Below, piece by piece: positions 1,377 through 17,927 of a stretch of DNA of 17,927 bases (its first letter is position 1; every line of letters starts with the position of its first letter). Source of the stretch: a virus (lineage: Duplodnaviria; Heunggongvirae; Uroviricota; Caudoviricetes); IMG/VR virus record IMGVR_UViG_2585427748_000008, positions 1-17,927 of that record; one strand, 5' to 3'. The position numbers were made by a program, and so were the translations under genes. A model generated the notes under the pieces. It was not told the DNA's origin and made no database searches. It saw only the letters and a program-made list of their open reading frames with translations.

Positions 1377-1396
1377 AATTGATGTTGAGGTAGGGG

Positions 1397-2186: not shown

Positions 2187-2447
2187 ATGCAATCACCATT
2201 ACGGAATGTGCGTAAGGCGCACGGATTTACTTTGCAGCATGTTGCTGCGGGCGTTCAGGTCAATCCAGCGACGCTGAGTCGTATTGAAAGACTGGAACAA
2301 ATTCCATCTATCGATCTTGCAGAACGTCTGGCCAATTTTTTTAAGGGTGAAATCAGCGAAATGCAGATTCTTTATCCGGCACGTTTTCAATCTAGCCAAA
2401 ACCAGAATGGGTTTAAACCACAGGAACAGGAGGTAAGCCGTGGGTAA
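2187..2447 (+). CDS. cro: Cro-like HTH regulator (Cro/YdaS-type)
   Basis: 86-aa ORF starting 5 nt after GGAGG; HTH-like segment GFTLQHVAAGVQVNPATLSRIE; position directly opposite cI. Confidence 0.75.
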   Translation: MQSPLRNVRKAHGFTLQHVAAGVQVNPATLSRIERLEQIPSIDLAERLANFFKGEISEMQILYPARFQSSQNQNGFKPQEQEVSRG

Positions 2448-2997: not shown

Positions 2998-4139
2998 ATA
3001 GTTTAACGGCAAATAACCGTTTGTCGCAACAGCTGGTGGTCAGCGTCGCTGAACACCTGTTGTTACGGCATGAATGCAGATTACCAAATCACCTGGCTGT
3101 AAGTAACCACAGAGAACTTTACCTGACTGTGGGGGGCGAGTTGTGCAGGAACTTAACCGCTGGTTTCGTGACGGAAGAGGGCTTTATGTCCATGTTATTC
3201 GTTGGGAGCCAGAAACACAGCGCGTTATCTATCTTCGCAAAGACTACCCGCATGAGTGCTTTAGTCCTTTGTGGAAATTCAGGCGTGATTTTGTTGAGTG
3301 TGAAGGACCACCAGCATATTGATTCTGCAATTCCGGGACGTTACACTGTTCAGGCACCTTATAAAGCGGGTGCCGGGATTGGCGTCCTGAAATTCGCACA
3401 TGCGCATAACCGCGCTTCAGCGGTTTTTTTGCGCACGTTTCCTCACATCCAAATTATGGTGGGGCGTGCAGGGGCATCGAAAGATGCGCCGGGGTCATGT
3501 GCGACCGGTTACGCCAACCCTGTACGTCTCACCACCTCTGTGATTGGCGTCCCATGTGGTGAGTTTTCAAAATTCGCACATGAGGATGTCACTATGGCAA
3601 CCACCCCTACCCAAACTCACCCTAAAATTGATGTTATCCATGGGAAGGCTGTTACCTCTTCTTTGGCCGTTGCCGAATATTTCTGCAAGCAGCACAAAAA
3701 CGTTATTCAAAAAATCCAGACGCTTGAGTGCTCTGTTGAATTCACTGAGCTGAATTTTCAGCCCAGTGATTACACCGATTGCACAGGCCGCAAACTCCCT
3801 TGTTACCAAATCACCCGCGACGGTTTTGCGTTTCTTGCCATGGGCTTCACGGGGAAACGTGCTGCCCGGTTCAAAGAGGCATACATCAATGCCTTTAACC
3901 AGATGGAGAAACAGCTTTCAAATCCCTCTGTACTGAGCGACGTTGCACATAACGCCAGCGTTCTCTATTCCTACATTTCATCAATTCATCAGGTCTGGCT
4001 GCAGCAGCTTTATCCCATGTTGGCAAAAGCCGAATCCCCGCTGGCTGTAAGTCTGTATGACCGCATCAACGACGCGGCGCTACTGGCCAGTCTCATAAAT
4101 TTGTCGCTGAACCCTTCAGAGGTAAGGGGGCGCAAATGA
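2994..4139 (+). CDS. Rha-family phage regulatory protein; Rha domain in the C-terminal ~182 aa, with a likely independent start at 3594
   Basis: Frame is open for 381 codons from an ATG overlapping the upstream stop (ATGA). Residues from 3594 (MATTPTQTHPKIDVIHGKAVTSSLAVAEYFCKQHKNVIQKI...) look like a Rha N-terminus and have GAGGA 7 nt upstream. Coding status of 2994-3593 is uncertain (see findings). Confidence 0.6.
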   Translation: MNSLTANNRLSQQLVVSVAEHLLLRHECRLPNHLAVSNHRELYLTVGGELCRNLTAGFVTEEGFMSMLFVGSQKHSALSIFAKTTRMSALVLCGNSGVILLSVKDHQHIDSAIPGRYTVQAPYKAGAGIGVLKFAHAHNRASAVFLRTFPHIQIMVGRAGASKDAPGSCATGYANPVRLTTSVIGVPCGEFSKFAHEDVTMATTPTQTHPKIDVIHGKAVTSSLAVAEYFCKQHKNVIQKIQTLECSVEFTELNFQPSDYTDCTGRKLPCYQITRDGFAFLAMGFTGKRAARFKEAYINAFNQMEKQLSNPSVLSDVAHNASVLYSYISSIHQVWLQQLYPMLAKAESPLAVSLYDRINDAALLASLINLSLNPSEVRGRK

Positions 4140-4360
4140 TCCGGAATATTTTCAAACGGTTTACCAATCATACTTTCCGTTGTCCTCGTCCGGGTCAGTG
4201 GTACACCACGCCTGCAGGGCATGTTCTACGTGTTAGCCTGGTTGACCGTGAATGTCAGAAGGTGATTTGTGAACCGCTGGGCCGTAATTACCGCATCAGT
4301 ATGCCGCTTATAGCCTTTTGCTCCGGAAAAAACATGAAGCATCTCGGAGGTGCAGCATGA
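4136..4360 (+). CDS. Small hypothetical protein (74 aa, Cys-containing), translationally coupled
   Basis: ATG overlaps the Rha stop (ATGA) and its own stop overlaps the next ATG (ATGA at 4357-4360); no recognisable family. Confidence 0.4.
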   Translation: MIRNIFKRFTNHTFRCPRPGQWYTTPAGHVLRVSLVDRECQKVICEPLGRNYRISMPLIAFCSGKNMKHLGGAA

Positions 4361-5175
4361 GTATGGAGCTGATGGTTAAAGCGATGAAAATTCGAGTGGG
4401 TAATCCATTGCGAAAACTGGTTCTGATCAAGCTGGCTGATAATGCCAGCGATCAGGGTGAGTGCTGGCCCAGCTACCAGCATATTGCTGACCAGTGCGAG
4501 ATTAGCAAACGTTCTGTGATGAATCATATTGCGGCCCTTTGTGAGTCCGGGCTGGTAAAAAAAGTCACCCGGAAAGGTGAAAAAGGTAACTCAAGTAATA
4601 TCTATCTCCTTCATCTTGATGGTGCAGGAGATTCACTAGGGGGTAGTGCAAATAATTCACTATCTGGTGCAGCAAATTCACCAGGTAGTGCAGGAGTTGC
4701 ACCAGGGGGTGGTGCAGGAGATTCACCCAGAACCAGTCACTCTTTTGAACCAGTCAAAGAACCAGTCAATGAACCAATAGCTGTTGGTGCATCTGCTGAT
4801 GAGTCTGTGCGAGTTCGTTCAAACCGACCGGAATACTCTCCGGAGTTTGAGCAGGCATGGCTGGCATACCCCAAACGTGCTGGTGGCAATTCAAAATCTG
4901 CAGCCTTCAAAGCCTGGAAAGCCCGTTTGAATGAGGGGGTAAAACCCGAAACCATGCTGGAAGGTGTGAAACGCTACGCGGGCTGGGTATCTGCGATGGG
5001 TAACAGCGGCACACAATTTGTGAAACAGGCTGTCACGTTCTTTGGTCCGGATCGTCATTTCGAAGAATCCTGGGAAGTTCCTGCGGTATCTGCAGCCAGA
5101 CGCGAGGACCCGTACTTCAAAGCCAGTTACGACAACGTGGACTACAGCCAGATCCCGGCAGGATTCAGGGGGTGA
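4357..5175 (+). CDS. Replication initiator, lambda O-like (N-terminal HTH, replisome-organiser-type C-terminus)
   Basis: ATG 6 nt after GGAGG; N-terminal HTH-like segment (LIKLADNASDQGECWPSYQHIADQCEISKRSVMNHIAALCESGLV); the gene contains an in-frame iteron array as in the lambda O gene. Confidence 0.7.
   Translation: MSMELMVKAMKIRVGNPLRKLVLIKLADNASDQGECWPSYQHIADQCEISKRSVMNHIAALCESGLVKKVTRKGEKGNSSNIYLLHLDGAGDSLGGSANNSLSGAANSPGSAGVAPGGGAGDSPRTSHSFEPVKEPVNEPIAVGASADESVRVRSNRPEYSPEFEQAWLAYPKRAGGNSKSAAFKAWKARLNEGVKPETMLEGVKRYAGWVSAMGNSGTQFVKQAVTFFGPDRHFEESWEVPAVSAARREDPYFKASYDNVDYSQIPAGFRG
4621..4778. repeat. Iteron array (putative phage replication origin) inside the O-like gene
   Basis: About five ~22-bp units built on GGTGCAGGAGATTCAC (exact copies at 4621-4636 and 4711-4726, variants between), followed by three GAACCAGTCA repeats at 4730-4770. 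Confidence 0.55.
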
Positions 5176-5177
5176 TC

Positions 5178-5666
5178 ATGAGTCTTTTGAATGAAGTTCA
5201 GAAATTCATTGAAGCCCATCCGGGGTGTACTTCCGGAGACATTGCGGATGCTTTTGCAGGTTACTCACGGCAGCGCGTTCTGCAGTCAGCAAGCAAGTTA
5301 CGTCAGAGTGGGCGTGTGGCTCACCGTTGTGAAGGAGATACACGCAGACATTTCCCGCGCCTGACTGAGAGAGCACAGGAGCCGGAACCACAACCAGTTC
5401 GTGAAACCAGACCTGTGCGCAATTTCTGTGTCGGCACTAACGACCCGCAGGTGATTTTGTGCCTGACTCGCCAGGCGGAAGAACTGGAGTCCAGGGGCTT
5501 ATTCCGTCGAGCTGCAACGGTGTGGATGGAGGCATTCCGTGAAAGCCACTCCCAGCCAGAACGAAACAATTTTCTGGCGCATCGTGAGCGGTGCTTACGG
5601 AAAAGCAGCAAGCGCGCTGCATCGGGTGAAGAGTGGTATCTGTCAGGGAATTACGTGGGGGCTTAA
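5178..5666 (+). CDS. PerC-family (Pch-like) transcriptional regulator with N-terminal extension
   Basis: ATG 3 nt after the O-like stop with G-rich RBS; C-terminal segment RGLFRRAATVWMEAFRE resembles the GLWRRAA..W motif I associate with PerC/Pch regulators (from memory). Confidence 0.5.
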   Translation: MSLLNEVQKFIEAHPGCTSGDIADAFAGYSRQRVLQSASKLRQSGRVAHRCEGDTRRHFPRLTERAQEPEPQPVRETRPVRNFCVGTNDPQVILCLTRQAEELESRGLFRRAATVWMEAFRESHSQPERNNFLAHRERCLRKSSKRAASGEEWYLSGNYVGA

Positions 5667-6319
5667 TGAGTAATAAATATTGCCAGGCGCTGGTGGAGCT
5701 GCGGAACAAACCAGCCCATGAACTGAAGGAAGTGGGCGATCAGTGGCGCACGCCGGACAACATTTTCTGGGGAATTAACACCCTGTTTGGCCCGTTTGTT
5801 CTGGATCTGTTCACTGATGGTGATAACGCCAAATGTGCCGCTTATTACACTGCGGAAGACAACGCGCTGGCGCATGACTGGTCTGAACGTCTTGCGGAGC
5901 TTAAAGGTGCTGCCTTTGGTAATCCCCCGTACAGCCGCGCCAGTCAGCATGAGGGGCAATACATCACCGGCATGCGTTACATCATGAAACATGCCAGTGC
6001 CATGCGTGATAAAGGCGGGCGCTATGTTTTCCTGATCAAAGCTGCCACCAGCGAAGTGTGGTGGCCGGAAGATGCAGATCATATTGCTTTTATTCGCGGG
6101 CGTATTGGTTTTGAACTGCCTGCCTGGTTTATCCCGAAAGACGAAAAGCAGGTGCCAACAGGTGCTTTCTTCGCTGGTGCTATTGCTGTTTTCGACAAGA
6201 CCTGGAAGGGACCGGCAATCAGCTACATAGGGCGCGATGAACTTGAGGCATGTGGTGAGGCGTTTCTGGCGCAGGTTCGCCAGCAGGCGGAAAAACTGGT
6301 CAGGGAGATGGCGGCATGA
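5666..6319 (+). CDS. Phage DNA N6-adenine methyltransferase (Dam-type)
   Basis: ATG overlaps the upstream stop (TAATG); contains the FGNPPY motif typical of N6-adenine methyltransferases; 217 aa. Confidence 0.85.
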   Translation: MSNKYCQALVELRNKPAHELKEVGDQWRTPDNIFWGINTLFGPFVLDLFTDGDNAKCAAYYTAEDNALAHDWSERLAELKGAAFGNPPYSRASQHEGQYITGMRYIMKHASAMRDKGGRYVFLIKAATSEVWWPEDADHIAFIRGRIGFELPAWFIPKDEKQVPTGAFFAGAIAVFDKTWKGPAISYIGRDELEACGEAFLAQVRQQAEKLVREMAA

Positions 6320-6642
6320 CGACGTTAACTCAATGCCAGCAGCAGGTGCTGGATATGCTGATTTCTTATCAGAAAGAACGTGGCTTCCCGCCAACCAATC
6401 AGGAGGTGGCAACCATGCTGGGATACCGTTCGGTGAATGCAGCGGTGGAGCATCTTCGCGCACTGGAGAAAAAAGGCGTCATCACGATAAAGCGTGGCGT
6501 GGCCCGGGGGATAACGCTTCATACTGCGATGAAGGACGACGACAGCGAGGCGGTCGGGATTATCCGCGCACTGCTTGCCGGTGAGGAAAACGCAAGGCTG
6601 CGTGCAACCCACTGGTTACATGAGAGGGGCCTGAAAGTATGA
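6316..6642 (+). CDS. LexA N-terminal-domain-like DNA-binding protein (no peptidase domain)
   Basis: ATGA-coupled start; 108-aa ORF with winged-helix-like QQVLDMLISYQKERGFPPTNQEVATMLGYRSVNAAVEHLRALEKKGVI. Confidence 0.6.
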   Translation: MTTLTQCQQQVLDMLISYQKERGFPPTNQEVATMLGYRSVNAAVEHLRALEKKGVITIKRGVARGITLHTAMKDDDSEAVGIIRALLAGEENARLRATHWLHERGLKV

Positions 6643-7034
6643 AGCTAATACTGCCTTTTCCGCCCAGCGTGAACACGTACTGGCGACACCCCAACAAAGG
6701 GGCGTTTGCTGGTAAGAGCCTGATAAGCGCGGCGGGGCGAAAATTCCAGAGCGCGGCGTGTGCAGCAATAGTTGAGCAGTTACGTCGTCTGCCGAAACCA
6801 ACGTCGGCACCTGCTTCAGTGGAGATCGTGTTGTTTCCTCCGGATAACCGGATCCGCGATCTGGACAACTATAACAAGGCGCTGTTTGACGCCCTGACCC
6901 ACGCGGGTGTGTGGGAAGACGACAGTCAGGTGAAAAGAATGCTGGTGGAGTGGGGACCGGTTATCCCGGAGGGGAAGGTCGAGATCACTATCAGTAAGTA
7001 CGAAAAAGCGAGTTGCAAATTAGCAACTCGGTAA
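6639..7034 (+). CDS. rusA: Holliday-junction resolvase RusA
   Basis: ATGA-coupled start; 131-aa sequence MKLILPFPPSVNTYWRH...DLDNYNKALFDALTHAGVWEDDSQV matches the RusA family pattern (from memory). Confidence 0.9.
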   Translation: MKLILPFPPSVNTYWRHPNKGAFAGKSLISAAGRKFQSAACAAIVEQLRRLPKPTSAPASVEIVLFPPDNRIRDLDNYNKALFDALTHAGVWEDDSQVKRMLVEWGPVIPEGKVEITISKYEKASCKLATR

Positions 7035-7196
7035 CGGAATTGAGCAACACCCTAAATTTGGGTATTACCTCGTTAAAGATACTGTATTTATGAACAGTGT
7101 ATCCTTGATAACTATTAAAAATCGCAGTAAGTTCATCCTGCATCAACGAAAAGGGAGTGCAGTCCCGCTCGTGGATAAAAATTTGTGGAGAAACCA

Positions 7197-8012
7197 ATGA
7201 ATCAGTTGCTTGTAATTGATGGCGTTTCTGTGCGCCAGTACTTCGAATCTAACTACTGTCTTAACGACCTTCAGAAAGCTGCTCTTCTTGCCGCTGGTGA
7301 GAATCGCTCCTCCCGTTCGCTGGAAGTTCACGAGTTTATGCGTCGTCCTGAAACGAAGGCTCTTGTGGAATTATTGGAAGAAGAAACTACGGGAGATTCC
7401 CGTAGTATTCCTGTCATCACCATTCAGGGGCGCAATGGTGGGACGTATGTCTGTAAAGAGCTGGTCTATGCATATGCAATGTGGATCAGCCCGGCATTCA
7501 GCTTAAAAGTGATACGTACTTTTGATGCGCTTCATAATTCATCACCAGAAGAAACCACATCCGACAAAATTAAATCCGGGGTCATTCTGCTTGAATCAGC
7601 AGCAAAGACTCTAAATCTGTCAAACTCCTCGAAACTTGGTGCATACCAGAAATTATCAAAGGTAGCTGGTCTTCCTGAACTTATGCCGATCTATGCCATT
7701 GATGCACCTGCTGATGCGCCAGATGGTTCAAGCCGCCCTACGCTGTCGCTGAGTGCACTGCTGAAGCAGTATGGTATCCGCCTGACGGCTAATCAGGCAT
7801 ATCACCAGATGGCGAAGCTGGGGATCGTTGAACAACGCGAACGATACAGCCGTACCGCGATTAACAACATCAAAAAATTCTGGTCGCTGACCGCGAAAGG
7901 CTGCATGTTCGGCAAGAACATCACCAGTCCTGCAAATCCGCGCGAGACGCAGCCGCATTTCTTCGAATCCCGATTTCCTGAGCTGTTAAAGCTGCTCGAT
8001 ACCGTTCATTGA
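7197..8012 (+). CDS. KilA-N domain protein (antirepressor-like)
   Basis: ATG with GGAG 6 nt upstream (track start 7185 is an upstream GTG); N-terminal KilA-N-like region (TYVCKELVYAYAMWISPAFSLKVIRTFD). Confidence 0.8.
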   Translation: MNQLLVIDGVSVRQYFESNYCLNDLQKAALLAAGENRSSRSLEVHEFMRRPETKALVELLEEETTGDSRSIPVITIQGRNGGTYVCKELVYAYAMWISPAFSLKVIRTFDALHNSSPEETTSDKIKSGVILLESAAKTLNLSNSSKLGAYQKLSKVAGLPELMPIYAIDAPADAPDGSSRPTLSLSALLKQYGIRLTANQAYHQMAKLGIVEQRERYSRTAINNIKKFWSLTAKGCMFGKNITSPANPRETQPHFFESRFPELLKLLDTVH

Positions 8013-8013
8013 G

Positions 8014-9009
8014 GTGACTGTGAGAGCACTACTGACCCCTGAAATTGCCCCGCGTATGGGGATCGTATTGTTCAGGCCAGGTTCAGAGCTGATGCCCCTG
8101 TTTATGCAGGGGCGTGTCCTGCTGGAGCCTGAGCCGGAGCGTTATTCATCTTTCGCCAGTGGTGCCGTTCCGGCGGCATCACAACCGCTGGCGGATGATC
8201 CTGCCGTTCGGGCCGTGTTCCGCCATGAGGCAGTGATCCGTCGTGCTGGTGGCGTGGAATGTCTTGAAAGCTGGTTACTTCGTGAAAAAGGCTGCCAGTG
8301 GCCTCATTCCGGATGGCACAGCGAGAACATGACCACAATGCGACACGCTCCGGGTGCAATCCGTCTGTGCTGGCACTGCGATAACCAGCTGCGCGATCAG
8401 TTCACGGAACGGCTGGAATCAATGGCAACGGATAACTGTGCCCGCTGGGTGTTGTCTGTTGTGCGTCGGGATCTCGGTTTTGATGACAGTCACGTTGTGA
8501 CAATGCCGGAACTGTGCTGGTGGCTGATTCGTAATGACCTGGCGGATGCCTTACCGGAAAGTGCAGCCCGTAAGGCACTGAGATTACCGAAGCCTGTTGT
8601 GCCGTCTGTCACCCGGGAAAGTGACCTTGTGCCTTCGGTTCCTGCCACCAGCATCATCCAGGATAAAGCGAAAAAGGTGCTGGCGCTGAAAGTGGATCCG
8701 GAGTCGCCGGAGTCTTTTATGTTACGCCCCAAACGTCGCCGCTGGGTTAATGAAAAGTACACGCGCTGGGTTAAGACGCAGCCGTGTGCATGTTGTGGAA
8801 AGCCTGCTGATGATCCCCACCATCTGATAGGCCACGGTCAGGGGGGAATGGGTACAAAAGCGCATGATCTCTTTGTGTTGCCTTTGTGCAGAAAGCATCA
8901 CGACGAGCTGCATGCGGATACCGTGGCATTTGAAGAGAAGTATGGCTCCCAGCTGGAGTTGATATTTCGTTTTATCGATCGTGCGCTGGCAATTGGTGTG
9001 CTGGCCTGA
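8014..9009 (+). CDS. DUF968-like prophage protein (Cys/His-rich HNH-like C-terminus)
   Basis: 331-aa ORF; C-terminal CACCGKPADDPHHLIGHGQGGMGTKAHDLFVLPLCRKHHDELH; start codon uncertain (GTG 8014, GTG 8020 or ATG 8056). Confidence 0.7.
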   Translation: MTVRALLTPEIAPRMGIVLFRPGSELMPLFMQGRVLLEPEPERYSSFASGAVPAASQPLADDPAVRAVFRHEAVIRRAGGVECLESWLLREKGCQWPHSGWHSENMTTMRHAPGAIRLCWHCDNQLRDQFTERLESMATDNCARWVLSVVRRDLGFDDSHVVTMPELCWWLIRNDLADALPESAARKALRLPKPVVPSVTRESDLVPSVPATSIIQDKAKKVLALKVDPESPESFMLRPKRRRWVNEKYTRWVKTQPCACCGKPADDPHHLIGHGQGGMGTKAHDLFVLPLCRKHHDELHADTVAFEEKYGSQLELIFRFIDRALAIGVLA

Positions 9010-9026
9010 TTTTGTGGAGAAAGTTG

Positions 9027-9383
9027 ATGCGTGATATGTATGAAGTAATGGATCGTTGGGGAGCTTGGGCTGCTTCAGACAATAGCGGAGTGGACTGGCA
9101 GCCGATAGCGGCTGGTTTCAAGGGACTTTTACCTCATGGCAAAAAGTCACGGATTCAGTGTGATGATGACGAAGGCATCATGATAGACAGTTGTGTGGCT
9201 CGGTTGAGAAGGTATAAACCAGAGGAATATGAGCTCATCATCGCCCACTTTGTTATCGGTATCTCATTACGTACTATTGCGAAGAAGAGAAAATGCTCTG
9301 ATGGCACAATTAGGAAGGAACTGCAAACTGCAATGGGGTTTGTTGACGGCTGTTTAGCAATGTTAGCTTATAGTATGGCATAA
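9027..9383 (+). CDS. Q: Late-gene antiterminator Q (phage 82/21-type family)
   Basis: ATG with GGAGA 6 nt upstream (track start 9012 is an upstream TTG); MRDMYEVMDRWGAWAA...WQPIAAGFKGLLP...CSDG pattern typical of this Q family (from memory); last gene of the nin-like region. Confidence 0.75.
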   Translation: MRDMYEVMDRWGAWAASDNSGVDWQPIAAGFKGLLPHGKKSRIQCDDDEGIMIDSCVARLRRYKPEEYELIIAHFVIGISLRTIAKKRKCSDGTIRKELQTAMGFVDGCLAMLAYSMA

Positions 9384-10577
9384 AAAATAAAATAGATTTA
9401 CTGCCGATTTTTCAAAAAAGACTGGGAACTGTTTATATCCAACGTAAATAAGGCCTCCATAAAACATGGCTGATGCGAGATATTTAACAGTTCTCATCCT
9501 TTTTTTAGCTTTATCAATCAAACCTGTAATGCTACTCTTAATACTATCTGCATTATCTTTGATTTCTTTATTTTCTTCAAACTTTAAATACTTATCGAAA
9601 GCGGACTCCACTCGAGAACGTAAGTTGTCGAATGTTTCATTGAATATCTCAATAGAAATGTAATTGACTTTTTTTATCATCCAAAGTCCTGCGATAATCA
9701 ATATTGCTTCGGTTGTTTCATTAGCCTTCACTAAGCCACCAGCAGCTATTAATGCACCGGGAATAGTCAATGCTTTTGTCTGATTAGATGATATGAATTC
9801 GTTAATTTTACTCGTGAACTCAAGATTTTTCTCATCGAGTTCGTTAAGAATTTTATTTACAGAAAACCTCTTTGTGTAAATCTCATATAGTTCATCATAT
9901 TTTTTCCTGACGAGTTCAGTAGAGTTAAGCAAGTCAAAGAAATTGAACGTACCATTTGCTTTAAATACTTCGTTTATGGCTGAGCGTATAACGAGCTTGC
10001 GCTCGCTTTTGTGTAAATCATTGATTTTTATTGTGTCGAGAAGCTCCTTTATAATTTCATATTTAAGAGACGAGTTCGATAAGCGATTAATCTCGCTATA
10101 TTGTAAAAAATGCGTGAGTTCGACTGTATAACTTTTGTCTTCATTGGTGAAAAATAAGACAGAGCAGTCACTGTTATGATGATCAGCAATTAATGAAAGG
10201 ATATCTTTCCACATAAAGAAAATATGGATTTTTTCGATGCTTTCATTCTTAGAAGTAGGGAGTATTAACGGCGTTCCGATGATATAATTTTTCGGAAGAG
10301 CGTTTTGGGTGTTTACTCTAGACCAAAAAGACTCAACATTCTCATAAATTATAGCGTCATCCCAAGATGAAGCTTGGCGATCTAGCCAAATTTCATTATT
10401 TTCGATGCAGGTTGTTGCCTTTTTATAACCTATAGATTGTAACAGTCTAATTATTTCAGAACTATTTACAATAACAATGCTTTCTTCAAGACTTATGACA
10501 GTGTAGTAGCCCTCAACTCTGCTTGAGGCTCCGTTAATAATCTGCGCTAATCTTGATAAGTCATCAGCAATTGTCAT
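9363..10577 (-). CDS. Hypothetical protein with hydrophobic C-terminal segments (predicted membrane protein); second gene of an AT-rich cassette
   Basis: 404-aa ORF; start 2 nt after the stop of the upstream cassette gene; hydrophobic stretches ALTIPGALIAAGGLV...AILIIAGLWMI and YLASAMFYGGLIYVGY; sampled GC ~28-42% versus ~58% in flanks; 3' end overlaps the Q 3' end by 21 nt. Confidence 0.7.
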   Translation of the reverse strand: MTIADDLSRLAQIINGASSRVEGYYTVISLEESIVIVNSSEIIRLLQSIGYKKATTCIENNEIWLDRQASSWDDAIIYENVESFWSRVNTQNALPKNYIIGTPLILPTSKNESIEKIHIFFMWKDILSLIADHHNSDCSVLFFTNEDKSYTVELTHFLQYSEINRLSNSSLKYEIIKELLDTIKINDLHKSERKLVIRSAINEVFKANGTFNFFDLLNSTELVRKKYDELYEIYTKRFSVNKILNELDEKNLEFTSKINEFISSNQTKALTIPGALIAAGGLVKANETTEAILIIAGLWMIKKVNYISIEIFNETFDNLRSRVESAFDKYLKFEENKEIKDNADSIKSSITGLIDKAKKRMRTVKYLASAMFYGGLIYVGYKQFPVFFEKSAVNLFYFLCHTIS

Positions 10578-10579
10578 TA

Positions 10580-11755
10580 TTAGCTGTCTCTATATCTTTT
10601 GAGTTCATCATAATTTGCCTGACTCAATTTTATCACAATTTCGCATTTGTTGTCAGTGAGAATTACAGGCTTATTTGACTTTTCGTCTCCAATAGCTCCA
10701 CGCATTATTTTCAACTTAAAATTATTGTCGTTATCTGCCACTTCAATTGTAAGCGCGCTTTCAGCTGCTTTAGGAGTTGGTTCAAATTGAGGGTCAATCT
10801 GGAAACCATTAAGATTAACAAAATCGACAAACGTTCCCTTACATTTGTGTGAATCAGTCAGGCATGAGTCAATTATTTTTGAAATATCCTCTATCTTAAC
10901 GGACTTATTTCCGTGTTTATCTTTTGATTTTTTTTCCAGTAAGGATTTAACTTCATTGTCAATAGTATCACGCAGTACACGACCGAGTGAGTTTTTACTA
11001 GCAAAAATATCTATAGCACTGAATAATTGCTGAATGCTTCTTTTATTGTCCGAATCATGTCGGCAACCTAATGAGTCTTTGAAAAAATCGCTTTTAGATT
11101 TACCTTGCAAGAAATGTACATATGAGTCACCCTTGTTTTCTGGATAACTGGCTTCGAATAAAGTTAAATCGAACATCGCAGCCTGCCGTAAGGCATCGGT
11201 ATTAATTGGATTTAATCTTGTTGGGGTCAACTTATCCGAATCAAAGTCATAGGCGCTTTGTTTATCAACCATTACGATTAGAAGTTTCCCCAAATCCTCT
11301 GGTTCGGTAGACTTATAGTGGATGAAAACAACGCTCCCCCCCTGAAGTTGGGCAACTCTCGATTCGTTATTAGCATTATGTTTAAGCTTCTCTATTATAG
11401 CTCTAGATAAATCAATGAATTCATTATTTTTATTAATGTATTTTTTTAGGATCGTAGGAATGGATGAAGGGTTGTGATCTGAGTCTAGGAAGTTATGAAA
11501 TTTGTTTTTTCGGCTAAATTTTTTCTCAATTCTGGTTATGAATTCAGATGTGACTTCATTTTTTAGATCCCAAACTTCACCTAATCGATAATCAAATGCT
11601 CTTGAATCATTTTTTTCAAGATTTGCTGTTACAGCACCAATAGGAAAGTACGATTGTTTGCCCAGCACTACAACATGAGGCGTGGCACCGCATTTATCGC
11701 AAGCTACAGTTGGGTCGTCAAGAACATTGCCACATTCTAAACAAGTTATATCCAT
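10580..11755 (-). CDS. Hypothetical protein with N-terminal CxxC-X10-CxxC zinc ribbon and NdpA/YejK-like (NA37) region; first gene of the cassette
   Basis: 391-aa ORF; Cys at residues 5, 8, 19 and 22 (CLECGNVLDDPTVACDKCG); GGSVVFIHYKS and YVHFLQGKSKSDFFKDSLG resemble motifs I recall from nucleoid-associated protein NdpA (unverified); a TATAAT hexamer lies about 12 nt upstream of the ATG on the minus strand. Confidence 0.7.
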   Translation of the reverse strand: MDITCLECGNVLDDPTVACDKCGATPHVVVLGKQSYFPIGAVTANLEKNDSRAFDYRLGEVWDLKNEVTSEFITRIEKKFSRKNKFHNFLDSDHNPSSIPTILKKYINKNNEFIDLSRAIIEKLKHNANNESRVAQLQGGSVVFIHYKSTEPEDLGKLLIVMVDKQSAYDFDSDKLTPTRLNPINTDALRQAAMFDLTLFEASYPENKGDSYVHFLQGKSKSDFFKDSLGCRHDSDNKRSIQQLFSAIDIFASKNSLGRVLRDTIDNEVKSLLEKKSKDKHGNKSVKIEDISKIIDSCLTDSHKCKGTFVDFVNLNGFQIDPQFEPTPKAAESALTIEVADNDNNFKLKIMRGAIGDEKSNKPVILTDNKCEIVIKLSQANYDELKRYRDS

Positions 11756-11875
11756 TATATATCCCGAATTATAAGAATGAATTTTTATGTGGCTGAAAAT
11801 TCTATCAAAACACTAACGCGTACGCAAAAAGTATTGTATTGTGTTAAGAGTGGTTACTTCGCCACACAACTTAAC

Positions 11876-11897
11876 CCCGCCACTGAGCGGGTTTTTT
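11876..11897 (+). terminator. Intrinsic terminator-like hairpin (CCCGC-CACTGA-GCGGG followed by TTTTTT); candidate tR'-type site
   Basis: 5-bp GC stem 11876-11880 / 11887-11891 followed by a 6-T run; lies in the non-coding stretch between the cassette promoter side and the FaeA-like gene. Confidence 0.4.
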
Positions 11898-12021
11898 GTA
11901 CCTGTAAACTTGGTGCAGTACAGTAAACACGCTGGTGGTCGTGAATACTGGCTTTTTATCTTGCTGGCTTTTTAGACAAGAGTTATTGGTATGTCACGTT
12001 AACCGGAAAGGGTAAAAAGAC

Positions 12022-12219
12022 ATGCTGAAACAGCAGGATATGACAGAAACCGCCAGAGTTGTGTTTGATGAATTAAGCGTTACCGAACCGGCGACAGTCG
12101 GGGAGATTGCGCAGAATACTTACCTTTCACGCGAACGCTGCCAGTTAATACTGACCCAGCTTGTTATGGCGGGTCTGGCAGACTATCAGTGCGGTTGTTA
12201 CAGACGCCTTCAGTCCTGA
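12022..12219 (+). CDS. Small winged-helix regulator, FaeA/PapI-like
   Basis: 65-aa ORF; TVGEIAQNTYLSRERCQLILTQLVMAGLADYQ resembles PapI/FaeA-type wH proteins (from memory); its stop is embedded in a strong terminator hairpin. Confidence 0.5.
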   Translation: MLKQQDMTETARVVFDELSVTEPATVGEIAQNTYLSRERCQLILTQLVMAGLADYQCGCYRRLQS

Positions 12220-12232
12220 AGGCTTTTTATTT
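12206..12232 (+). terminator. Rho-independent terminator after the FaeA-like gene
   Basis: 7-bp stem GCCTTCA/TGAAGGC with loop GTCC (12206-12223) followed by TTTTTATTT. Confidence 0.55.
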
Positions 12233-12353
12233 GTGGTGAATGGGCGGCTGGTGGGGGGGCGACACCTGTCAGTCCTTTGCTTATGTGTTGATGATAATTT
12301 ACCTTTTGGGGCTATAATTGAGCTAACCAATTGCTAATGAAAGTAAAATTATA

Positions 12354-13067
12354 ATGGCTGTTGTCTGTTCAGTTATCATGGTTTGCTCCCCAATTAATAT
12401 TTTTCTTGAAAAGGATACGTTGTCACTTAAGCCAGGCTCAGTTGTTCTGGCCACCAAATGCATCAGGGAGCTTTTCCTTATGCATTATGGCAAAGTTAAA
12501 ATTGTCGATATAAGCGAATCCGTCGTAAGTCAATATCTGGAAAGTCAGCATAAGCTGACGAGGACTCGTCTGACTGACATTCCGCTTTACCTGTTGCTGG
12601 AACCCAACAATCCTGCGTTGGCTGCGGCTTTAATTACCAGCCAGGGATTTTCCGGAGAGGCCACGGATATGTTTCTTATGATGGCCTGCCTGTCTCTGTT
12701 TGAAACAGATGAACGGATGTCATTGTTTTTAAGTGGATGTTTATCCAGCATAAGTGCCAAAGTCAGGGCGATAATTCAGACAGATATATCAGCAAGCTGG
12801 ACGCTTGGTGCGATTGCTCTACAGTTGCATATGAGTGAGAGTTTGTTAAAGACAAAACTGAAAAATGAAGGGGGCATGTTCAGTCGCTTGTTGCTGGAAG
12901 AGCGGATGCGTGTTGCTGTAAATATGTTATGTTCCCGGCATGGATATGGACAGGCTATAGCAGAAAAATGCGGTTATTCAAGCAGGTCCTACTTTATTTC
13001 TGTATTTCACCGCTATTATGGCTTCCCGCCAGACAGATATGTATCCAGGCAAGGGCTTGATTATTGA
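12354..13067 (+). CDS. AraC-family transcriptional regulator (AppY/GadX-like prophage regulator)
   Basis: 237-aa ORF with C-terminal AraC-type HTH (WTLGAIALQLHMSESLLKTKLK...AIAEKCGYSSRSYFISVFHRYYGFPP); a TATAAT hexamer sits at 12314-12319 upstream. Confidence 0.8.
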   Translation: MAVVCSVIMVCSPINIFLEKDTLSLKPGSVVLATKCIRELFLMHYGKVKIVDISESVVSQYLESQHKLTRTRLTDIPLYLLLEPNNPALAAALITSQGFSGEATDMFLMMACLSLFETDERMSLFLSGCLSSISAKVRAIIQTDISASWTLGAIALQLHMSESLLKTKLKNEGGMFSRLLLEERMRVAVNMLCSRHGYGQAIAEKCGYSSRSYFISVFHRYYGFPPDRYVSRQGLDY

Positions 13068-13095
13068 TTTTCATCTGATTATTATTTTTTGGCTC

Positions 13096-13171
13096 GGCCC
13101 TTTAGCTCAGTGGTGAGAGCGAGCGACTCATAATCGCCAGGTCGCTGGTTCAAATCCAGCAAGGGCCACCA
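13096..13171 (+). tRNA. ileZ: tRNA with CAT anticodon (Ile2-lysidine type or Met), 3' CCA encoded
   Basis: Manual fold: 7-bp acceptor GGCCCTT/AAGGGCC, D-arm TAGCTCAGTGGTGAGAGC, anticodon loop CTCATAA, T-arm CTGGTTCAAATCCAG, discriminator A then CCA. Symbol given by analogy to the ileZ-argN-argO cluster of Stx phages. Confidence 0.85.
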
Positions 13172-13178
13172 TCACATA

Positions 13179-13252
13179 CCGCCATTAGCTCATCAGGAAA
13201 GAGCGCCAGCCTTCGAAGCTGGTTGCGCGGAGTTCGGGTCCCCGAAGGCGGT
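13179..13252 (+). tRNA. argN: tRNA-Arg-like (anticodon TCG), aberrant: one acceptor-stem and one T-stem mismatch, no encoded CCA
   Basis: Manual fold: acceptor CCGCCAT/AAGGCGG (6 of 7 pairs), D-stem GCTC/GAGC, anticodon stem CCAGC/GCTGG with loop CTTCGAA, T-arm CGGAG-TTCGGGT-CCCCG (4 of 5 pairs). Confidence 0.6.
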
Positions 13253-13268
13253 TCATTATCTGTATCCT

Positions 13269-13345
13269 GCGTTGTTAGCTCAGCCGGACAGAGCAATTGC
13301 CTTCTAAGCAATCGGTCACTGGTTCGAATACAGTAGAACGCGCCA
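13269..13345 (+). tRNA. argO: tRNA-Arg (anticodon TCT), with one acceptor-stem and one T-stem mismatch; CCA encoded
   Basis: Manual fold: acceptor GCGTTGT/AGAACGC (6 of 7), D-arm TAGCTCAGCCGGACAGAGC, anticodon stem ATTGC/GCAAT with loop CTTCTAA, T-arm ACTGG-TTCGAAT-ACAGT (4 of 5), discriminator G then CCA. Confidence 0.75.
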
Positions 13346-13360
13346 CACTTATTTTCCCTG

Positions 13361-13384
13361 GCTCGCTTTTGCGGGCTTTTTTTT
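13361..13384 (+). terminator. Intrinsic terminator after the tRNA cluster
   Basis: GCTCGC-TTTT-GCGGGC hairpin (6 bp including one G-U) followed by an 8-T run. Confidence 0.6.
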
Positions 13385-13833
13385 AAATGTCTCACAATTC
13401 AGGCGGTTGACTGTTGTCTGGTTTGCGGGGAGTTTGTTAAAAGAAACTGGCATGGTGAATCCCCCTGTGCGGAGGGGCAATCAGCGAGTAGGTATATGGG
13501 ATAATCGCGGATTCAGGTGCTGGTACTGAATTCACCGGGAGGCACCCGGCACCATGCAATGGCACATAGTGCCACTCTCCAGCCCCTCTCCGGAGGGGCT
13601 TTCTTATGGACAAAAAAAGCCCGCGCAGGGAGACGCGGGCGGCAAGGAATAAACAACAAAACGTGAAGTAATATTTCAGCTGGCGAATAATATCCGACAG
13701 TAATCACTCTGCGCAATAGCGCGGCCTTTTTCGTATTGCGGGCTGTTGTCTATCTTCTGCCATTGTCCTGTAACTTCCGGACTTCAGCCCGCTCCTCATT
13801 TTACTCACAATATTATCCAGGCCGGGAGGATTC

Positions 13834-15795
13834 ATGGCATTTAAACACTATGACGTGGTCAGGGCGGCGTCGCCGTCAGACCTTGCGGAGCGACTGACAC
13901 AAAAACTGAAGGAGGGGTGGCAGCCATTTGGCAGTCCGGTGGCCATCACGCCTTATACCCTGATGCAGGCCATTGCGGCGGAAGGTGATGTCACCACACC
14001 TGTGGTGGTGAAGCCGTCGGATGGAGAAGGCGCAGTTATCAGCACCACCAGCAACCCGGAGTATTACTTTGTTGTTGCCCTGGCCGGGCAGTCAAACGGT
14101 ATGGCGTATGGTGAAGGGCTTCCGCTGCCGGAGACATATGACCGTCCGGACCCGCGTATTAAACAGCTGGCGCGTCGCAGCACTGTCACGCCGGGTGGTG
14201 CGTCCTGTAACTACAATGACATTATTCCTGCGGACCACTGCCTGCATGATGTTCAGGATTTGAGTAAGTTTTCACACCCGAAAGCTAGCGCAGCTCAGTA
14301 TGGATGCGTGGGGCAGGGATTACATATCGCGAAGAAATTGTTGCCGTTTATTCCGGCGAATGCCGGTATTCTTCTGGTTCCGTGCTGCCGTGGTGGTTCT
14401 GCATTTTTGGCGGGCGATGAAGGTACCTTCAGCGAATCCACCGGCGCAAGCGAGACCTCGGCACGCTGGGGTGTAGATAAGCCACTGTACAAGGACCTGC
14501 TTACCCGTACTCAGGCCGCACTGAAGGCTAACCCTAAAAATATTCTGCTTGCAGTGGTCTGGATGCAGGGCGAGTTTGATTTGAAACAGGGTGCATACGC
14601 CACTCAGCCGGGGCTGTTTGATTCCATGGTGGAAAAATATCGTTCTGACCTGTCGGAATTCGGAGGTCAGTGTCTCGGGGGCTCTCCGTCATCGGTTCCC
14701 TGGATTTGTGGCGACACGACCTACTACTGGAAGCAGACTTATTCTTCGCAATACGATGCGGTGTATGGTGCATACAAGACGAAATCCGCAAAAAAAATCT
14801 TCTTTGTGCCGTTTATGACGGATGAAAACGGGCGAAATGTGGGTACCAACGAGCCGTCAGAAGATCCGGATGTTGCGGATATTGGGTATTACGGAGCCGG
14901 TGGTCGAACGGACGCCAAAACCTGGACGACGGCCGACCGTAAAACGCATTTTGGATCATGGGCACGTCGTGGGATTATTTCCGACCGTCTGGCAACGGCG
15001 ATTCTTGTGCATGCCGGGAGAACCGCTGAATTCATTACCGGAAAACAGCCTGATACGGTGAAGCCCACCGGACCTTCCGGTGAAGGTACGGAGAGAGAGC
15101 CGGAAGCCCCGGTCAGTAACCGAACCCTGATGAGTCTGCTGGCGTCCGGCGAAGACCTGGCATCACAGGGCTGGCGCTATTATCACAAACCGGCGAGCGG
15201 AGACAATGTTAACAAAAACATTGCTGAAGCGGTGGTCAGTGATGCGGGGGCTACGGGAGGTAAGGCCCTGCAACTGAATAAACCGGAAAACCACATCTGG
15301 TTTCTGGAGCATGATGCAGCCGGACAGGGAGTGGAGTTACTGAAGAAGGGGGGACGTGTGAGCGTACGGTTTAAGTTGCCGGGTTCACTGGTGCCGAATC
15401 GGTTTGCCCTGGGCATTTACTGGCAGTTGTCGTCCCTGCCGGAGGGAGTGACGCTGGCAGAGGAAGGCAACGACATGCTGATGTCCTTCTTCCTGCAGAC
15501 GGATGCGACGAACCTGAACGCGATGTACCACAAGAAGCCGAATGCGAAGCTGGATACGTTCGGGGTCTTTGATAACGGATGGCACACACTGGCTTTTGAG
15601 TTTGCCGGAAACAACAGCATTCAGGTGACGCCGGTACTGGATGAGAAACGGGGGACGCCGTTCACACTGGTGAAATCTCCGGCATCAGGGGCGGCGGACA
15701 AACTGCAACTGACAGGCATATCAAAGGCGGCGACATATACGCTGCTGATTGACAGTGTGAAGGTGGAAGTGAACAACGCGGATGCCGCGGCATGA
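13834..15795 (+). CDS. nanS-p: Prophage sialate O-acetylesterase NanS-p (N-terminal DUF1737-like region, SASA/SGNH esterase core, C-terminal extension)
   Basis: 653-aa ORF with GGGAGGA RBS; the AGQSNG motif (FVVALAGQSNGMAYGEG) is typical of the sialate O-acetylesterase catalytic site; sits where nanS-p lies downstream of stx in Stx phages. Confidence 0.85.
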   Translation: MAFKHYDVVRAASPSDLAERLTQKLKEGWQPFGSPVAITPYTLMQAIAAEGDVTTPVVVKPSDGEGAVISTTSNPEYYFVVALAGQSNGMAYGEGLPLPETYDRPDPRIKQLARRSTVTPGGASCNYNDIIPADHCLHDVQDLSKFSHPKASAAQYGCVGQGLHIAKKLLPFIPANAGILLVPCCRGGSAFLAGDEGTFSESTGASETSARWGVDKPLYKDLLTRTQAALKANPKNILLAVVWMQGEFDLKQGAYATQPGLFDSMVEKYRSDLSEFGGQCLGGSPSSVPWICGDTTYYWKQTYSSQYDAVYGAYKTKSAKKIFFVPFMTDENGRNVGTNEPSEDPDVADIGYYGAGGRTDAKTWTTADRKTHFGSWARRGIISDRLATAILVHAGRTAEFITGKQPDTVKPTGPSGEGTEREPEAPVSNRTLMSLLASGEDLASQGWRYYHKPASGDNVNKNIAEAVVSDAGATGGKALQLNKPENHIWFLEHDAAGQGVELLKKGGRVSVRFKLPGSLVPNRFALGIYWQLSSLPEGVTLAEEGNDMLMSFFLQTDATNLNAMYHKKPNAKLDTFGVFDNGWHTLAFEFAGNNSIQVTPVLDEKRGTPFTLVKSPASGAADKLQLTGISKAATYTLLIDSVKVEVNNADAAA

Positions 15796-15930
15796 TAAAA
15801 AAAGCCGCCAGCGGCAGGAACGGAAGCTGGCGGAGGGAATCCCAATGGAGAATGTAAAGAAAAGATGCTTTCGTATATCGGTTTTTTAAATGAAAACAGT
15901 TCTCATTGTCAACCATAACGGTAAGAAACT

Positions 15931-16125
15931 ATGACATTTATTCATCAGGTGATGCTGTACTTCTGTACGGCGGTCTGTGTGCTGTATCTTCTTTCGGGTG
16001 GGTACAGGGCAGTGCGCGATTTCTGGCGCAGGCAGATTGATAAAAGGGCCGCAGAGAAAATCAGCGCCAGTCAGTCAGCCGGAGCAAAAACAGAAGCCCC
16101 ACTCATTCCGGAACAACCTTCTTAA
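15931..16125 (+). CDS. Small hypothetical protein with one hydrophobic segment (64 aa)
   Basis: ORF only; hydrophobic VMLYFCTAVCVLYLLSGGY; weak RBS; no family recognised. Confidence 0.3.
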   Translation: MTFIHQVMLYFCTAVCVLYLLSGGYRAVRDFWRRQIDKRAAEKISASQSAGAKTEAPLIPEQPS

Positions 16126-16285
16126 TAACCCATTTCAACGAGAAAATCCTATGTCAGAAATAAAATCGCTGGTCACTGCTGAGGCAGTGAAGGAAGTTCT
16201 GCGCTCTGAAGAAGTCCGGAGCGCACTGAAACGTAACCGGCTCATTTAAACCGTCTGGTCTGTTTCCTCCGGCTCTACAAAAATA

Positions 16286-16963
16286 ATGTCCATCATTTTT
16301 AATGGACACTATCGTATGAAACACCGGACCTGGATCACTGAAGCTTTACGTCTTCACTTTGAAGAACATTTACCCCGGGTTGTGGCCGGGCGTCGCCTGG
16401 GTGTACCAAAATCAACAGTTTGTAGTATGTTCGTGCGCTTTCGGAGAGCTGGCCTTTCGTGGCCTTTGCCCGCAGGCATGTCGGAGCAGGAACTTGATGC
16501 CTGCCTTTACGGACAATTTTCCACGGTACCAGTCGTACGTCCTGAAAGCACCGTTATATCCGAAGCCCCCGTGGTAAAAAAACGTCCCCGGCGGCCCAAC
16601 TTCCCTTATGAGTTTAAAATCGCCTTAGTGGAGCAGTCACTGCAGCCCGGAGCCTGTGTGGCGCAGATCGCCCGGGAAAACGGAATCAACGATAACCTGC
16701 TCTTCAACTGGCGCCATCAATACCGGAAAGGTGGCCTGCTGCCTTCCGGAAAAAATATGCCGGCACTGCTTCCCGTGACGTTAACGCCGGAGCCGGATAA
16801 TAAAATCCCGGCCCCCGCACAGGAACCAGAGCAGATAAATACACCGTCCGACAGTCTGTGTTGTGAGCTGGTTCTGCCGGCCGGAACTCTCAGGCTTAAA
16901 GGTAAACTGACGCCGGCGTTATTACAGACACTTATCCGCGAAATAAAAGGGAGCAGCCACTGA
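16286..16963 (+). CDS. tnpA: IS66-family accessory protein TnpA (orf1)
   Basis: 225-aa ORF (alternative ATG at 16316) with HTH-like segment (RRLGVPKSTVCSMFVRFRRAGL); immediately precedes and overlaps the tnpB start. Confidence 0.8.
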   Translation: MSIIFNGHYRMKHRTWITEALRLHFEEHLPRVVAGRRLGVPKSTVCSMFVRFRRAGLSWPLPAGMSEQELDACLYGQFSTVPVVRPESTVISEAPVVKKRPRRPNFPYEFKIALVEQSLQPGACVAQIARENGINDNLLFNWRHQYRKGGLLPSGKNMPALLPVTLTPEPDNKIPAPAQEPEQINTPSDSLCCELVLPAGTLRLKGKLTPALLQTLIREIKGSSH

Positions 16964-17310
16964 TGATATCTCTCCCTGCAGGTTCGCGTATCTGGCTGGT
17001 TGCAGGTATCACCGATATGCGAAATGGCTTTAACGGCCTGGCATCAAAAGTTCAGAACGTCCTGAAGGATGACCCGTTCTCCGGACACCTGTTCATCTTC
17101 CGCGGACGCCGGGGTGACCAGATAAAAGTGTTGTGGGCTGACAGTGACGGACTGTGCCTCTTCACCAAACGCCTGGAGCGGGGCCGCTTCGTCTGGCCAG
17201 TCACCCGTGACGGCAAGGTGCACCTTACTCCGGCTCAGTTATCCATGCTTCTTGAAGGTATCAACTGGAAGCACCCGAAACGAACGGAACGCGCTGGAAT
17301 CCGCATATAA
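16963..17310 (+). CDS. tnpB: IS66-family TnpB (orf2)
   Basis: 115-aa ORF MISLPAGSRIWLVAGITDMRNGFNGLA...; size and sequence pattern typical of IS66 Orf2 (from memory); start overlaps the tnpA stop. Confidence 0.9.
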   Translation: MISLPAGSRIWLVAGITDMRNGFNGLASKVQNVLKDDPFSGHLFIFRGRRGDQIKVLWADSDGLCLFTKRLERGRFVWPVTRDGKVHLTPAQLSMLLEGINWKHPKRTERAGIRI

Positions 17311-17329
17311 CCCGTTGTAAAGTGAGGAT

Positions 17330-17927
17330 ATGGACACCTCACTTGCTCATGAGAACGCCCGCCTGCGGGCACTGTTGCAGACGCAACAGGACACCATCCG
17401 CCAGATGGCTGAATACAACCGCCTGCTCTCACAGCGGGTGGCGGCTTATGCTTCCGAAATCAACCGGCTGAAGGCGCTGGTTGCGAAACTGCAACGTATG
17501 CAGTTCGGTAAAAGCTCAGAAAAACTTCGTGCAAAAACCGAACGGCAGATACAGGAAGCACAGGAGCGAATCAGCGCACTTCAGGAAGAAATGGCGGAAA
17601 CGCTGGGTGAGCAATATGACCCGGTACTGCCATCCGCCCTGCGCCAGTCTTCAGCCCGTAAACCGTTACCGGCCTCACTTCCCCGTGAAACCCGGGTTAT
17701 CCGGCCGGAAGAGGAATGCTGTCCTGCCTGTGGTGGTGAACTCAGTTCTCTGGGATGTGATGTGTCAGAGCAACTGGAGCTTATCAGCAGCGCCTTTAAG
17801 GTTATCGAAACACAACGTCCGAAACAGGCCTGTTGCCGGTGCGACCATATCGTGCAGGCACCAGTACCTTCAAAACCCATTGCACGCAGTTATGCCGGAG
17901 CGGGGCTTCTGGCCCATGTTGTCACCG
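17330..17927 (+). CDS. tnpC: IS66-family transposase TnpC, N-terminal part only (runs off the window end)
   Basis: ATG preceded by GAGGA; open frame to the window end (MDTSLAHENARLRALLQ...; coiled-coil-like N-terminus then CPACGGEL...CCRC zinc-finger-like motif); absent from the ORF track because no stop lies in the window. Confidence 0.85.
   Translation, partial: MDTSLAHENARLRALLQTQQDTIRQMAEYNRLLSQRVAAYASEINRLKALVAKLQRMQFGKSSEKLRAKTERQIQEAQERISALQEEMAETLGEQYDPVLPSALRQSSARKPLPASLPRETRVIRPEEECCPACGGELSSLGCDVSEQLELISSAFKVIETQRPKQACCRCDHIVQAPVPSKPIARSYAGAGLLAHVVT

Follow-up and report, generated by a model that had tools for sequence, protein, structure and literature searches.

PsrA and PsrB, prophage-borne regulators of E. 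coli O157, repress LEE type III secretion by raising GadE and YhiF; PsrB, for its part, raises acid survival and binds the promoters of hdeA (between -132 and -45) and of gadE (reviewed in PMC10877973). The PsrB of OI-57 is also covered in a further review (PMC8565820), and AppY and PatE are assigned the same kind of role as the Psr proteins (PMC10057817). psrA is reported to be active in O157:H7 (PMC10877973, PMC13502914). The psr loci are reportedly associated with loci for type III secretion effectors and with Pch regulators on the same prophage. What is said below about the function of PsrB is taken from the reviews and from PMC10057817, and refers to near-identical proteins.

The locus considered here lies in a stretch of viral DNA of 17,927 nt (the window, in what follows) that represents the early-right and late-left portions of a lambdoid prophage; positions 1-16232 are 99.97% identical to E. 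coli FORC_069. A sequence-only reading had singled out a 65-amino-acid (aa) ORF with its own terminator, a promoter-like TATAAT and an AraC-family ORF, all between the late-leader terminator and the tRNAs, and had taken the two genes to be a FaeA/PapI-like plus AraC-family regulator pair, present as lysogenic-conversion cargo. These elements are all there (at the positions listed below) and they do lie downstream of Q, but the pair dissolves on closer comparison. The explanation that very probably holds is that a psrB moron sits beside an independent gene of the phage backbone, the 65-aa ORF, at the start of a lambdoid late operon.

Layout of the locus

The features to which the argument refers are these:

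9012-9383: antiterminator Q (Pfam Phage_antitermQ, E=3.2e-47)
9363-11755, - strand: low-GC gene pair (the DS-1 defence pair)
11876-11901, + strand: late-leader (tR'-type) intrinsic terminator, with the stem CCCGC-CACTGA-GCGGG at 11876-11891 followed by the T-run TTTTTTGT
11931-11962, + strand: another terminator-like hairpin, 3' of the leader terminator and 5' of the small ORF, with 7 pairs and a loop of 8 (hairpin at 11931-11952) followed by TTTTTATCTT
12022-12219, + strand: small ORF, 65 aa, ATG start (ORF call)
12206-12233, + strand: intrinsic terminator of the small ORF, with the 7-pair stem GCCTTCA-GTCC-TGAAGGC at 12206-12223 followed by TTTTTATTTG
12256-13080, + strand: psrB cassette (moron) of ~825 bp, comprising promoter region and AraC gene (from homology breakpoints)
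12291-12318, + strand: σ70 promoter-like site, ATGATA-16-TATAAT, the likely psrB promoter (from a consensus scan)
12354-13067, + strand: AraC-family ORF, 237 aa (ORF call and Pfam)
13096-13345, + strand: tRNA cluster of the ileZ-argN-argO type, directly 3' of the cassette
13096-13171: tRNA with CAT anticodon, Ile according to RefSeq
13178-13254: tRNA Arg (TCG)
13269-13345: tRNA Arg (TCT)
13834-15795: DUF1737-SASA esterase gene (Pfam)

Q, the defence pair, psrB, the tRNAs, the esterase and lysis genes are the neighbors in this locus. The region is richer in terminator-like sites than shuffled sequences are (11 versus 2.3 ± 1.5). Alignments to SfV, FT130, UTI89 and the Stx2k phage each start at 11874-11876, that is, at the leader terminator; for the phages with other Q types (SfV and FT130) it is with this hairpin that DNA homology to the window begins. 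A scan of 11756-11875 for a late promoter yielded no convincing match on the + strand. No terminator belonging to the psrB cassette precedes the tRNAs. A PerC-family gene (yfdN-like) is located at about 5172-5666, and there is no type III secretion effector gene within the 17.9 kb of the window.

The AraC-family gene and its cassette

The family label that the sequence-only reading attached to the 237-aa protein is borne out by Pfam: over residues 155-230 it matches HTH_AraC (50.3 bits, E=2.4e-13; cut-off 26.6) and HTH_18 (39.8 bits, E=5.8e-10; cut-off 33.6), and it has the C-terminal AraC/XylS DNA-binding domain of ~100 aa with two helix-turn-helix motifs. The best match in the PDB is the DNA-binding domain of GadX (3mkl, E=7e-19), and the top NCBIfam models are those for YdeO and GadX, both scored far below their equivalog cut-offs. 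(A technical note: YdeO itself was considered as the identity of the protein and set aside, its model NF007407 scoring 108.5 bits against a cut-off of 348; at 31% identity, K-12 YdeO is a paralogue.) In the Rns/ToxT-like subgroup of the family, this domain is accompanied by an N-terminal β-sandwich, which in some members has a pocket for a fatty acid. The AF2 model of the protein, with N-terminal strands followed by helices, is poor (pLDDT 62.8, shallow alignment). Foldseek aligns this low-confidence model over its full length to Rns, CsvR and ToxT with E ~5e-9, but with a TM score of just 0.28, and the modelled resemblance to Rns and ToxT is not to be trusted in its details.

Comparison with known prophage AraC-like regulators leads to a more specific identification. 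The protein is identical at 234 of 237 positions (98.7%) to the one encoded at 1,906,697-1,907,410 in ATCC 43894 (EDL933). These coordinates fall inside OI-57 (1849324-1929825), which carries psrB, z2104 (PMC8565820); it is this position, together with the identity, rather than a locus tag, on which the assignment as PsrB is based. The three substitutions that separate the window protein from EDL933 PsrB are A103V, H196Y and I202V, two of them in the DNA-binding half. Identity to ECs_1087 of Sakai, which is psrA according to the Tree laboratory (2026; PMC13502914), is 90.7% (22 substitutions). Between the two O157 variants identity is 91%, matching the published 90% relation of PsrA to PsrB, and the window, EDL933 and Sakai proteins share a single 90% cluster of 2285 members. 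With at least ~90% identity to z2104 or ECs1087, and with its gene lying in a lambdoid late region between Q and ileZ-argN-argO tRNAs, the protein agrees with the Psr regulators in sequence and in the place of its gene. On the combined strength of sequence and position, the window gene is identified as an allele of psrB. RefSeq names its product merely a "helix-turn-helix domain-containing protein".

(A note on the location of psrA: the reviews used here (PMC10877973, PMC8565820) put psrA, z1789, in OI-50. There is no AraC homologue in the OI-50 region of ATCC 43894; psrA is located instead as ECs_1087 in Sakai Sp4, which is at odds with that placement.)

Of 5426 complete E. coli genomes, 830 carry the AraC gene, with identity of at least 99% in 595 records, and its dN/dS of 0.2-0.4 (0.21-0.43 in pairwise comparison of four alleles) is the signature of purifying selection. 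An allele identical to that of the window occurs in O104:H4 strains.

The boundaries of the cassette emerge from comparison with eight related loci, four of them of the methylase type (Stx2a_1447, UTI89, SfV and FT130). Homology to the latter extends from about 11876 to 12255 (up to 12285) and restarts at 13081-13092, placing the cassette boundaries at 12255/12256 and 13080/13081; GC content is 37.5-48.5% within, versus 49-55% in the flanks. In the majority of related phages this slot is filled by a gene for an N6_N4 DNA methyltransferase of ~350 aa, in the window it holds psrB, and in PhiR5_1 it is empty. Discrete replacement and deviating base composition are marks of a moron, and the segment 12256-13080 displays both; for a further mark, a promoter of its own that works in the lysogen, the promoter-like site is the candidate. 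The sole deposited phage genome with the whole arrangement is that of phiSTEC1575-Stx2k, with stx2k immediately downstream. The promoter-like site matches the consensus at 10 of 12 positions, but the scan that found it returned 5 sites versus 3.6 expected, which is not significant. The site is conserved in the psrA, psrB and Stx2k-phage alleles, among which the upstream 100 bp, TATAAT included, are almost invariant; in a homologue of 59% identity the aligned hexamer is TATACT.

The proposal that the locus is lysogenic-conversion cargo is half right. It stands for the AraC gene, PsrB in a replaceable cassette; it falls for the 65-aa gene, a piece of conserved backbone that usually has a methylase as its next neighbor. 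The kind of circuit to which the genes were referred divides in the same way: acid resistance and virulence agree, for the AraC gene, with what the reviews say of PsrB, while the fimbrial association fails, there being no fimbrial operon nearby.

The small gene 5' of the cassette

Is the 65-aa ORF a gene at all? It is very short, it reaches no curated family (in Pfam or NCBIfam) and it has terminators on both sides, so one might think of it as a non-coding spacer between two terminators that insulates the late operon. That is barely credible. An AAGGG Shine-Dalgarno-like motif can be read in the sequence ~10 nt 5' of the ORF; dN/dS is 0.02-0.3 (0.02-0.33 in most pairs) with dS up to 0.8; 27 columns are invariant among 21 proteins from six genera (Escherichia, Shigella, Salmonella, Klebsiella, Citrobacter and Buttiauxella); the structure model consistently gives a winged helix; and residues 1-64 match the profile of phrog_331 strongly (E=6e-37). 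The ORF is, on this evidence, a real gene under purifying selection. Its terminator overlaps the stop codon, and the stem of that terminator is kept in 8 homologous loci, the loop and the bases of the stop codon being free to vary.

The AF2 model (pLDDT 71) consists of three helices (residues 4-18, 26-33 and 37-49) followed by two strands (53-56 and 59-62), which is the succession of three helices and β-hairpin wing that defines a winged helix-turn-helix. Foldseek relates the model (TM 0.7-0.79, E ~5e-3) to generic winged-helix domains: the N-domains of O-methyltransferases, IclR, MarR, SelB and Z-alpha. The winged-helix N-domains of SAM-dependent methyltransferases are among the nearest fold matches by PDB profile as well as by Foldseek. 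What can be supported from the model is limited to a generic winged-helix fold. The more particular label FaeA/PapI finds nothing to attach to: neither the window protein (E<=0.1) nor any of the 21 family members (E<=10) matches PF04703, and PapI is absent from the PDB profile matches and from the best 50 Foldseek matches. (Another technical note: PGAP labels some phrog_331 copies "TrmB family". That label was tried for the window protein and rejected, since the score of 17.8 bits (E=0.003) for PF01978 is below the gathering cut-off of 25.6; all 21 family members have merely weak matches to TrmB and DprA_WH in Pfam. A literature search by the locus tags of relatives, such as ECs1203, Z1460 and Z2103, turned up nothing useful.)

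The small ORF is present in 2398 of 5426 complete E. coli genomes (44%), in up to 7 copies each. An N6_N4 DNA methyltransferase gene follows it in 1912 E. coli genomes, an AraC (psr) gene in 725. It sits behind Q genes of at least three Pfam families (Phage_antitermQ, Phage_antiter_Q and DUF1133), and occupies this position in SfV (as orf47), phiP27, Stx2 phages and prophages of Salmonella and Klebsiella. The order in the Salmonella and Klebsiella prophages is Q, small ORF, methylase and then lysis genes; one Klebsiella locus (L020) lacks the methylase, its order being otherwise Q, small ORF, lysis genes. At the loci without a methylase (the window, PhiR5_1 and Klebsiella L020) the small ORF remains intact, with purifying selection acting on it. 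Beside psrA, in Sakai Sp4 and in Rafaela_II, it has suffered a 1-nt deletion after codon 49 that shifts its frame. As judged from these comparisons, the 65-aa gene is conserved phage backbone, the first gene of the lambdoid late operon, rather than cargo. In Stx phages it heads the transcript on which the Shiga toxin genes are also carried; being widespread, it merits functional study, if in a modest way.

Proposed mechanism and known relatives

The arrangement is pictured as two units. The first, consisting of the leader terminator and the 65-aa gene with its own terminator, is conserved backbone. A late promoter is placed near 11807-11845 solely from the start of homology to phages with the same type of Q. 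The HnrS sRNA (PMC13502914) is a conceivable identity for the late leader. In the lysogen, the late transcript should stop at 11897, with back-up termination at ~11960 and 12233. Because the 65-aa gene lies behind the leader terminator, its expression is expected to depend on Q: it would be transcribed mainly during lytic growth, when Q-modified RNA polymerase passes both terminators. The second unit is the ~825-bp moron, with its promoter-like site and psrB, in place of the methyltransferase. Two or three terminators shield the cassette from the late promoter, so that the lysogen most likely transcribes psrB from the cassette's own promoter near 12291-12318. By analogy with the near-identical EDL933 protein, PsrB would then bind the gadE and hdeA promoters and turn on glutamate-dependent acid resistance. 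In hosts that have LEE, the additional GadE would go on to repress type III secretion; in a host without LEE, if such is the host, the acid-resistance arm alone would apply. The O104:H4 serotype is not known to carry LEE, and acid resistance is on that account the likely selected function of the identical allele in these strains, rather than control of type III secretion.

Could the two genes nonetheless work together, a PapI/FaeA-like co-regulator and an AraC protein acting on fimbrial or virulence promoters? They are adjacent and on the same strand, the 65-aa protein and PapI are both winged helices, and ~91% of the genomes with the AraC gene (725 of 797) have the small ORF directly 5' of it. 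Such co-occurrence is explained by a cassette entering a fixed slot 3' of a backbone gene, and the remaining evidence makes a functional pair very improbable: 1) The FaeA signal in Pfam is found in 0 of 21 members, and PapI is missing from the structural matches, as noted above. 2) The small ORF is mostly found without the AraC gene. 3) It has its own terminator. 4) It is frameshifted beside Sakai psrA, a regulator reported to be active; this last is the strongest evidence that PsrA and PsrB are independent of the small protein. From the separate distribution of the two genes and from the frameshift, they are best described as neighbors and not as a regulatory pair. Placement in the late operon, directly 5' of the tRNAs and with no intervening terminator, might also suggest that the AraC protein regulates functions of the phage itself (late genes, tRNAs, lysis or superinfection immunity) and not host genes. 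That is very unlikely in turn: the cassette is replaceable, most related phages, inducible ones included, do without the AraC gene, the targets reported for near-identical proteins are host promoters (gadE and hdeA), and control of the acid fitness island is common to the nearest relatives on the chromosome (YdeO, GadX and AppY).

A different partner for the small protein is suggested by its usual neighbor. It may be a controller or cofactor of the N6_N4 methyltransferase that was orphaned when psrB replaced the methylase; the order small ORF-methylase is dominant (the 1912 E. coli genomes just mentioned, and SfV, UTI89, Salmonella and Klebsiella besides), and methyltransferase N-domains figure among the nearest folds. 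We regard this as unlikely, although not to be dismissed lightly: the small ORF is retained at the methylase-less loci of the window, PhiR5_1 and Klebsiella L020, a terminator stands between it and the methylase, and the fold matches are generic, the matched enzymes being O-methyltransferases and not DNA methyltransferases. A broader speculation, on similarly uncertain ground, is that the phrog_331 protein is a regulator located where the late operon of lambdoid phages of Enterobacteriaceae begins, acting either on the adjacent methylase gene or on read-through of the paired terminators, which would shield toxin and lysis genes in lysogens; in psr-type prophages it would be retained for the latter role. 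As a separate matter, the PsrB allele may regulate more than gadE and hdeA in lineages without LEE, O104:H4 among them.

The psrB moron beside an independent backbone gene thus remains the preferred explanation. Its significance beyond correct annotation is small: the AraC gene is already characterized as PsrB, and the product of the small gene is likewise already known, as phrog_331. The annotation of psrB in the window predicts, by analogy, prophage-driven control of glutamate-dependent acid resistance, and what is worth correcting is the description of the small gene as a PapI-like partner, which it is not.

How does the locus compare with the systems that it resembles? PapI and FaeA have in common with the 65-aa protein small size and the winged-helix fold class; sequence and profile similarity are lacking, and the 65-aa gene differs from theirs in lacking a fimbrial operon and a divergent papB-like gene around it and in belonging to a phage late operon. 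Its true kin are the members of phrog_331, a phage family listed as of unknown function, from which it shows no difference. The K-12 safA-ydeO operon likewise places an AraC gene 3' of a 65-aa gene; SafA was considered as a relative of the small ORF and discarded, the two failing to align, so that the shared layout is a coincidence. For the AraC protein, on the other hand, YdeO (31% identical) and AppY (29%) are relatives of the same architecture that align from end to end, and YdeO, AppY and GadX act on the same class of target (gadE) as PsrB.

Among prophage-borne regulators, PatE (z0321, of OI-8/CP-933H) is a full-length homologue of the window protein (37% identity, E=5e-54), with which it shares the N-terminal motif M-x-x-x-CSV; like PsrB it is carried by a prophage and reported to activate gadE and hdeA. 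Unlike the window psrB, it is a distant paralogue encoded near tail-fibre and invertase genes, outside the Q-tRNA slot. PsrA (ECs1087 of Sakai Sp4; z1789 in the reviews) occupies that same slot, behind a near-identical promoter region; its locus differs from the window in the frameshift of the 65-aa ORF and in a CAAX-protease gene between Q and the leader. Closest of all is PsrB of EDL933 (z2104, OI-57/CP-933O), equal in length to the window protein. The prophage around it has a Q of the DUF1133 type, whereas the window has one of the Phage_antitermQ type together with the inserted DS-1 defence pair; from there on the layout is the same, running from the small ORF through the promoter region and the AraC gene to the ileZ/arg tRNAs and the SASA esterase.

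Probable cargo and RNA genes around the psrB region

The island between the antiterminator gene Q and the terminator region of the late leader has a GC content of 30-38% and carries a pair of minus-strand genes with matches to anti-phage families:

9363-11755, minus strand: two-gene anti-phage system (NCBIfam DS1_1 and DS1_2 matches)
10580-11755, minus strand: 391-aa gene; matches Pfam NA37 and, at E=2e-135, NCBIfam DS1_1 ("nucleoid-associated anti-phage protein")
9363-10577, minus strand: 404-aa gene; NCBIfam DS1_2 (E=3e-112)

Because the related methylase-type phage Stx2a_1447 has another, different minus-strand gene pair at the equivalent position, this location looks like a hot spot for cargo. 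The NA37 gene, which is an intact open reading frame in the window, is annotated as two coding sequences in the RefSeq record of E. coli FORC_069, whose sequence is 99.97% identical to the window over 1-16232.

Other features lie to either side:

3354-3430, plus strand: isrK Hfq-binding RNA (Rfam)
3452-3539, plus strand: C4 antisense RNA (Rfam)
5172-5666, plus strand: PerC-family (yfdN-like) regulator gene
13421-13611, plus strand: STnc100 small RNA (Rfam, 140 bits; gathering score 47)
16286-16963: open reading frame with a transposase helix-turn-helix (HTH_Tnp_1, E=9e-15)

The isrK and C4 RNAs both fall inside the span of an open reading frame with Ash and Rha domains (2994-4139), an immunity module of the P1/P7 antirepressor type. 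The PerC-family gene belongs to the early part of the prophage that also bears psrB; psr genes are reported to co-occur with Pch/PerC regulators (PMC10877973). STnc100 follows the tRNA genes and precedes the one for the SASA esterase, with several terminator-like hairpins on its flanks. At the right end, the match to FORC_069 stops at 16232, within that strain's DUF826-family gene. The rest of the window (16233-17927) contains the open reading frame with the transposase helix-turn-helix, which probably marks an IS element inserted ahead of the holin gene.

psrA and its neighbor in O157:H7

Reviews assign psrA (z1789) to OI-50, while a 2026 paper (PMC13502914) lists it as ecs1087 in Sp4. The OI-50 prophage of ATCC 43894 (L005, 1,625,000-1,672,000) carries nleL and espN and has neither an AraC homologue nor a small open reading frame after Q. 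The conflict is a discrepancy in the literature, of locus naming or of assembly. The 65-aa gene adjoining O157:H7 psrA has suffered a 1-nt deletion after codon 49 (L015 18344-18583, which is Sakai Sp4 ECs_1086; L006 11667-11863), and the Rafaela_II annotation marks it as frameshifted; its counterpart beside psrB in EDL933 is intact.

Related arrangements in other E. coli

A Psr-like AraC gene, 59% identical, is found in E. coli 2014C-4135 (L012 4776-5726), preceded by what is left of the 3' end of a DNA methyltransferase gene. Farther upstream of the AraC gene come a small open reading frame, a methylase and tRNAs, forming a complete set, along with a tolA-like gene. The arrangement suggests that the slot has been duplicated, and its layout hints at the route by which AraC cassettes entered beside the methylase. 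Similarity between SafA of K-12 and the phage 65-aa protein is not detectable; the gene order itself recurs on the chromosome, where the paralogue ydeO likewise has a 65-aa gene, safA, before it (L013 3927-4960).
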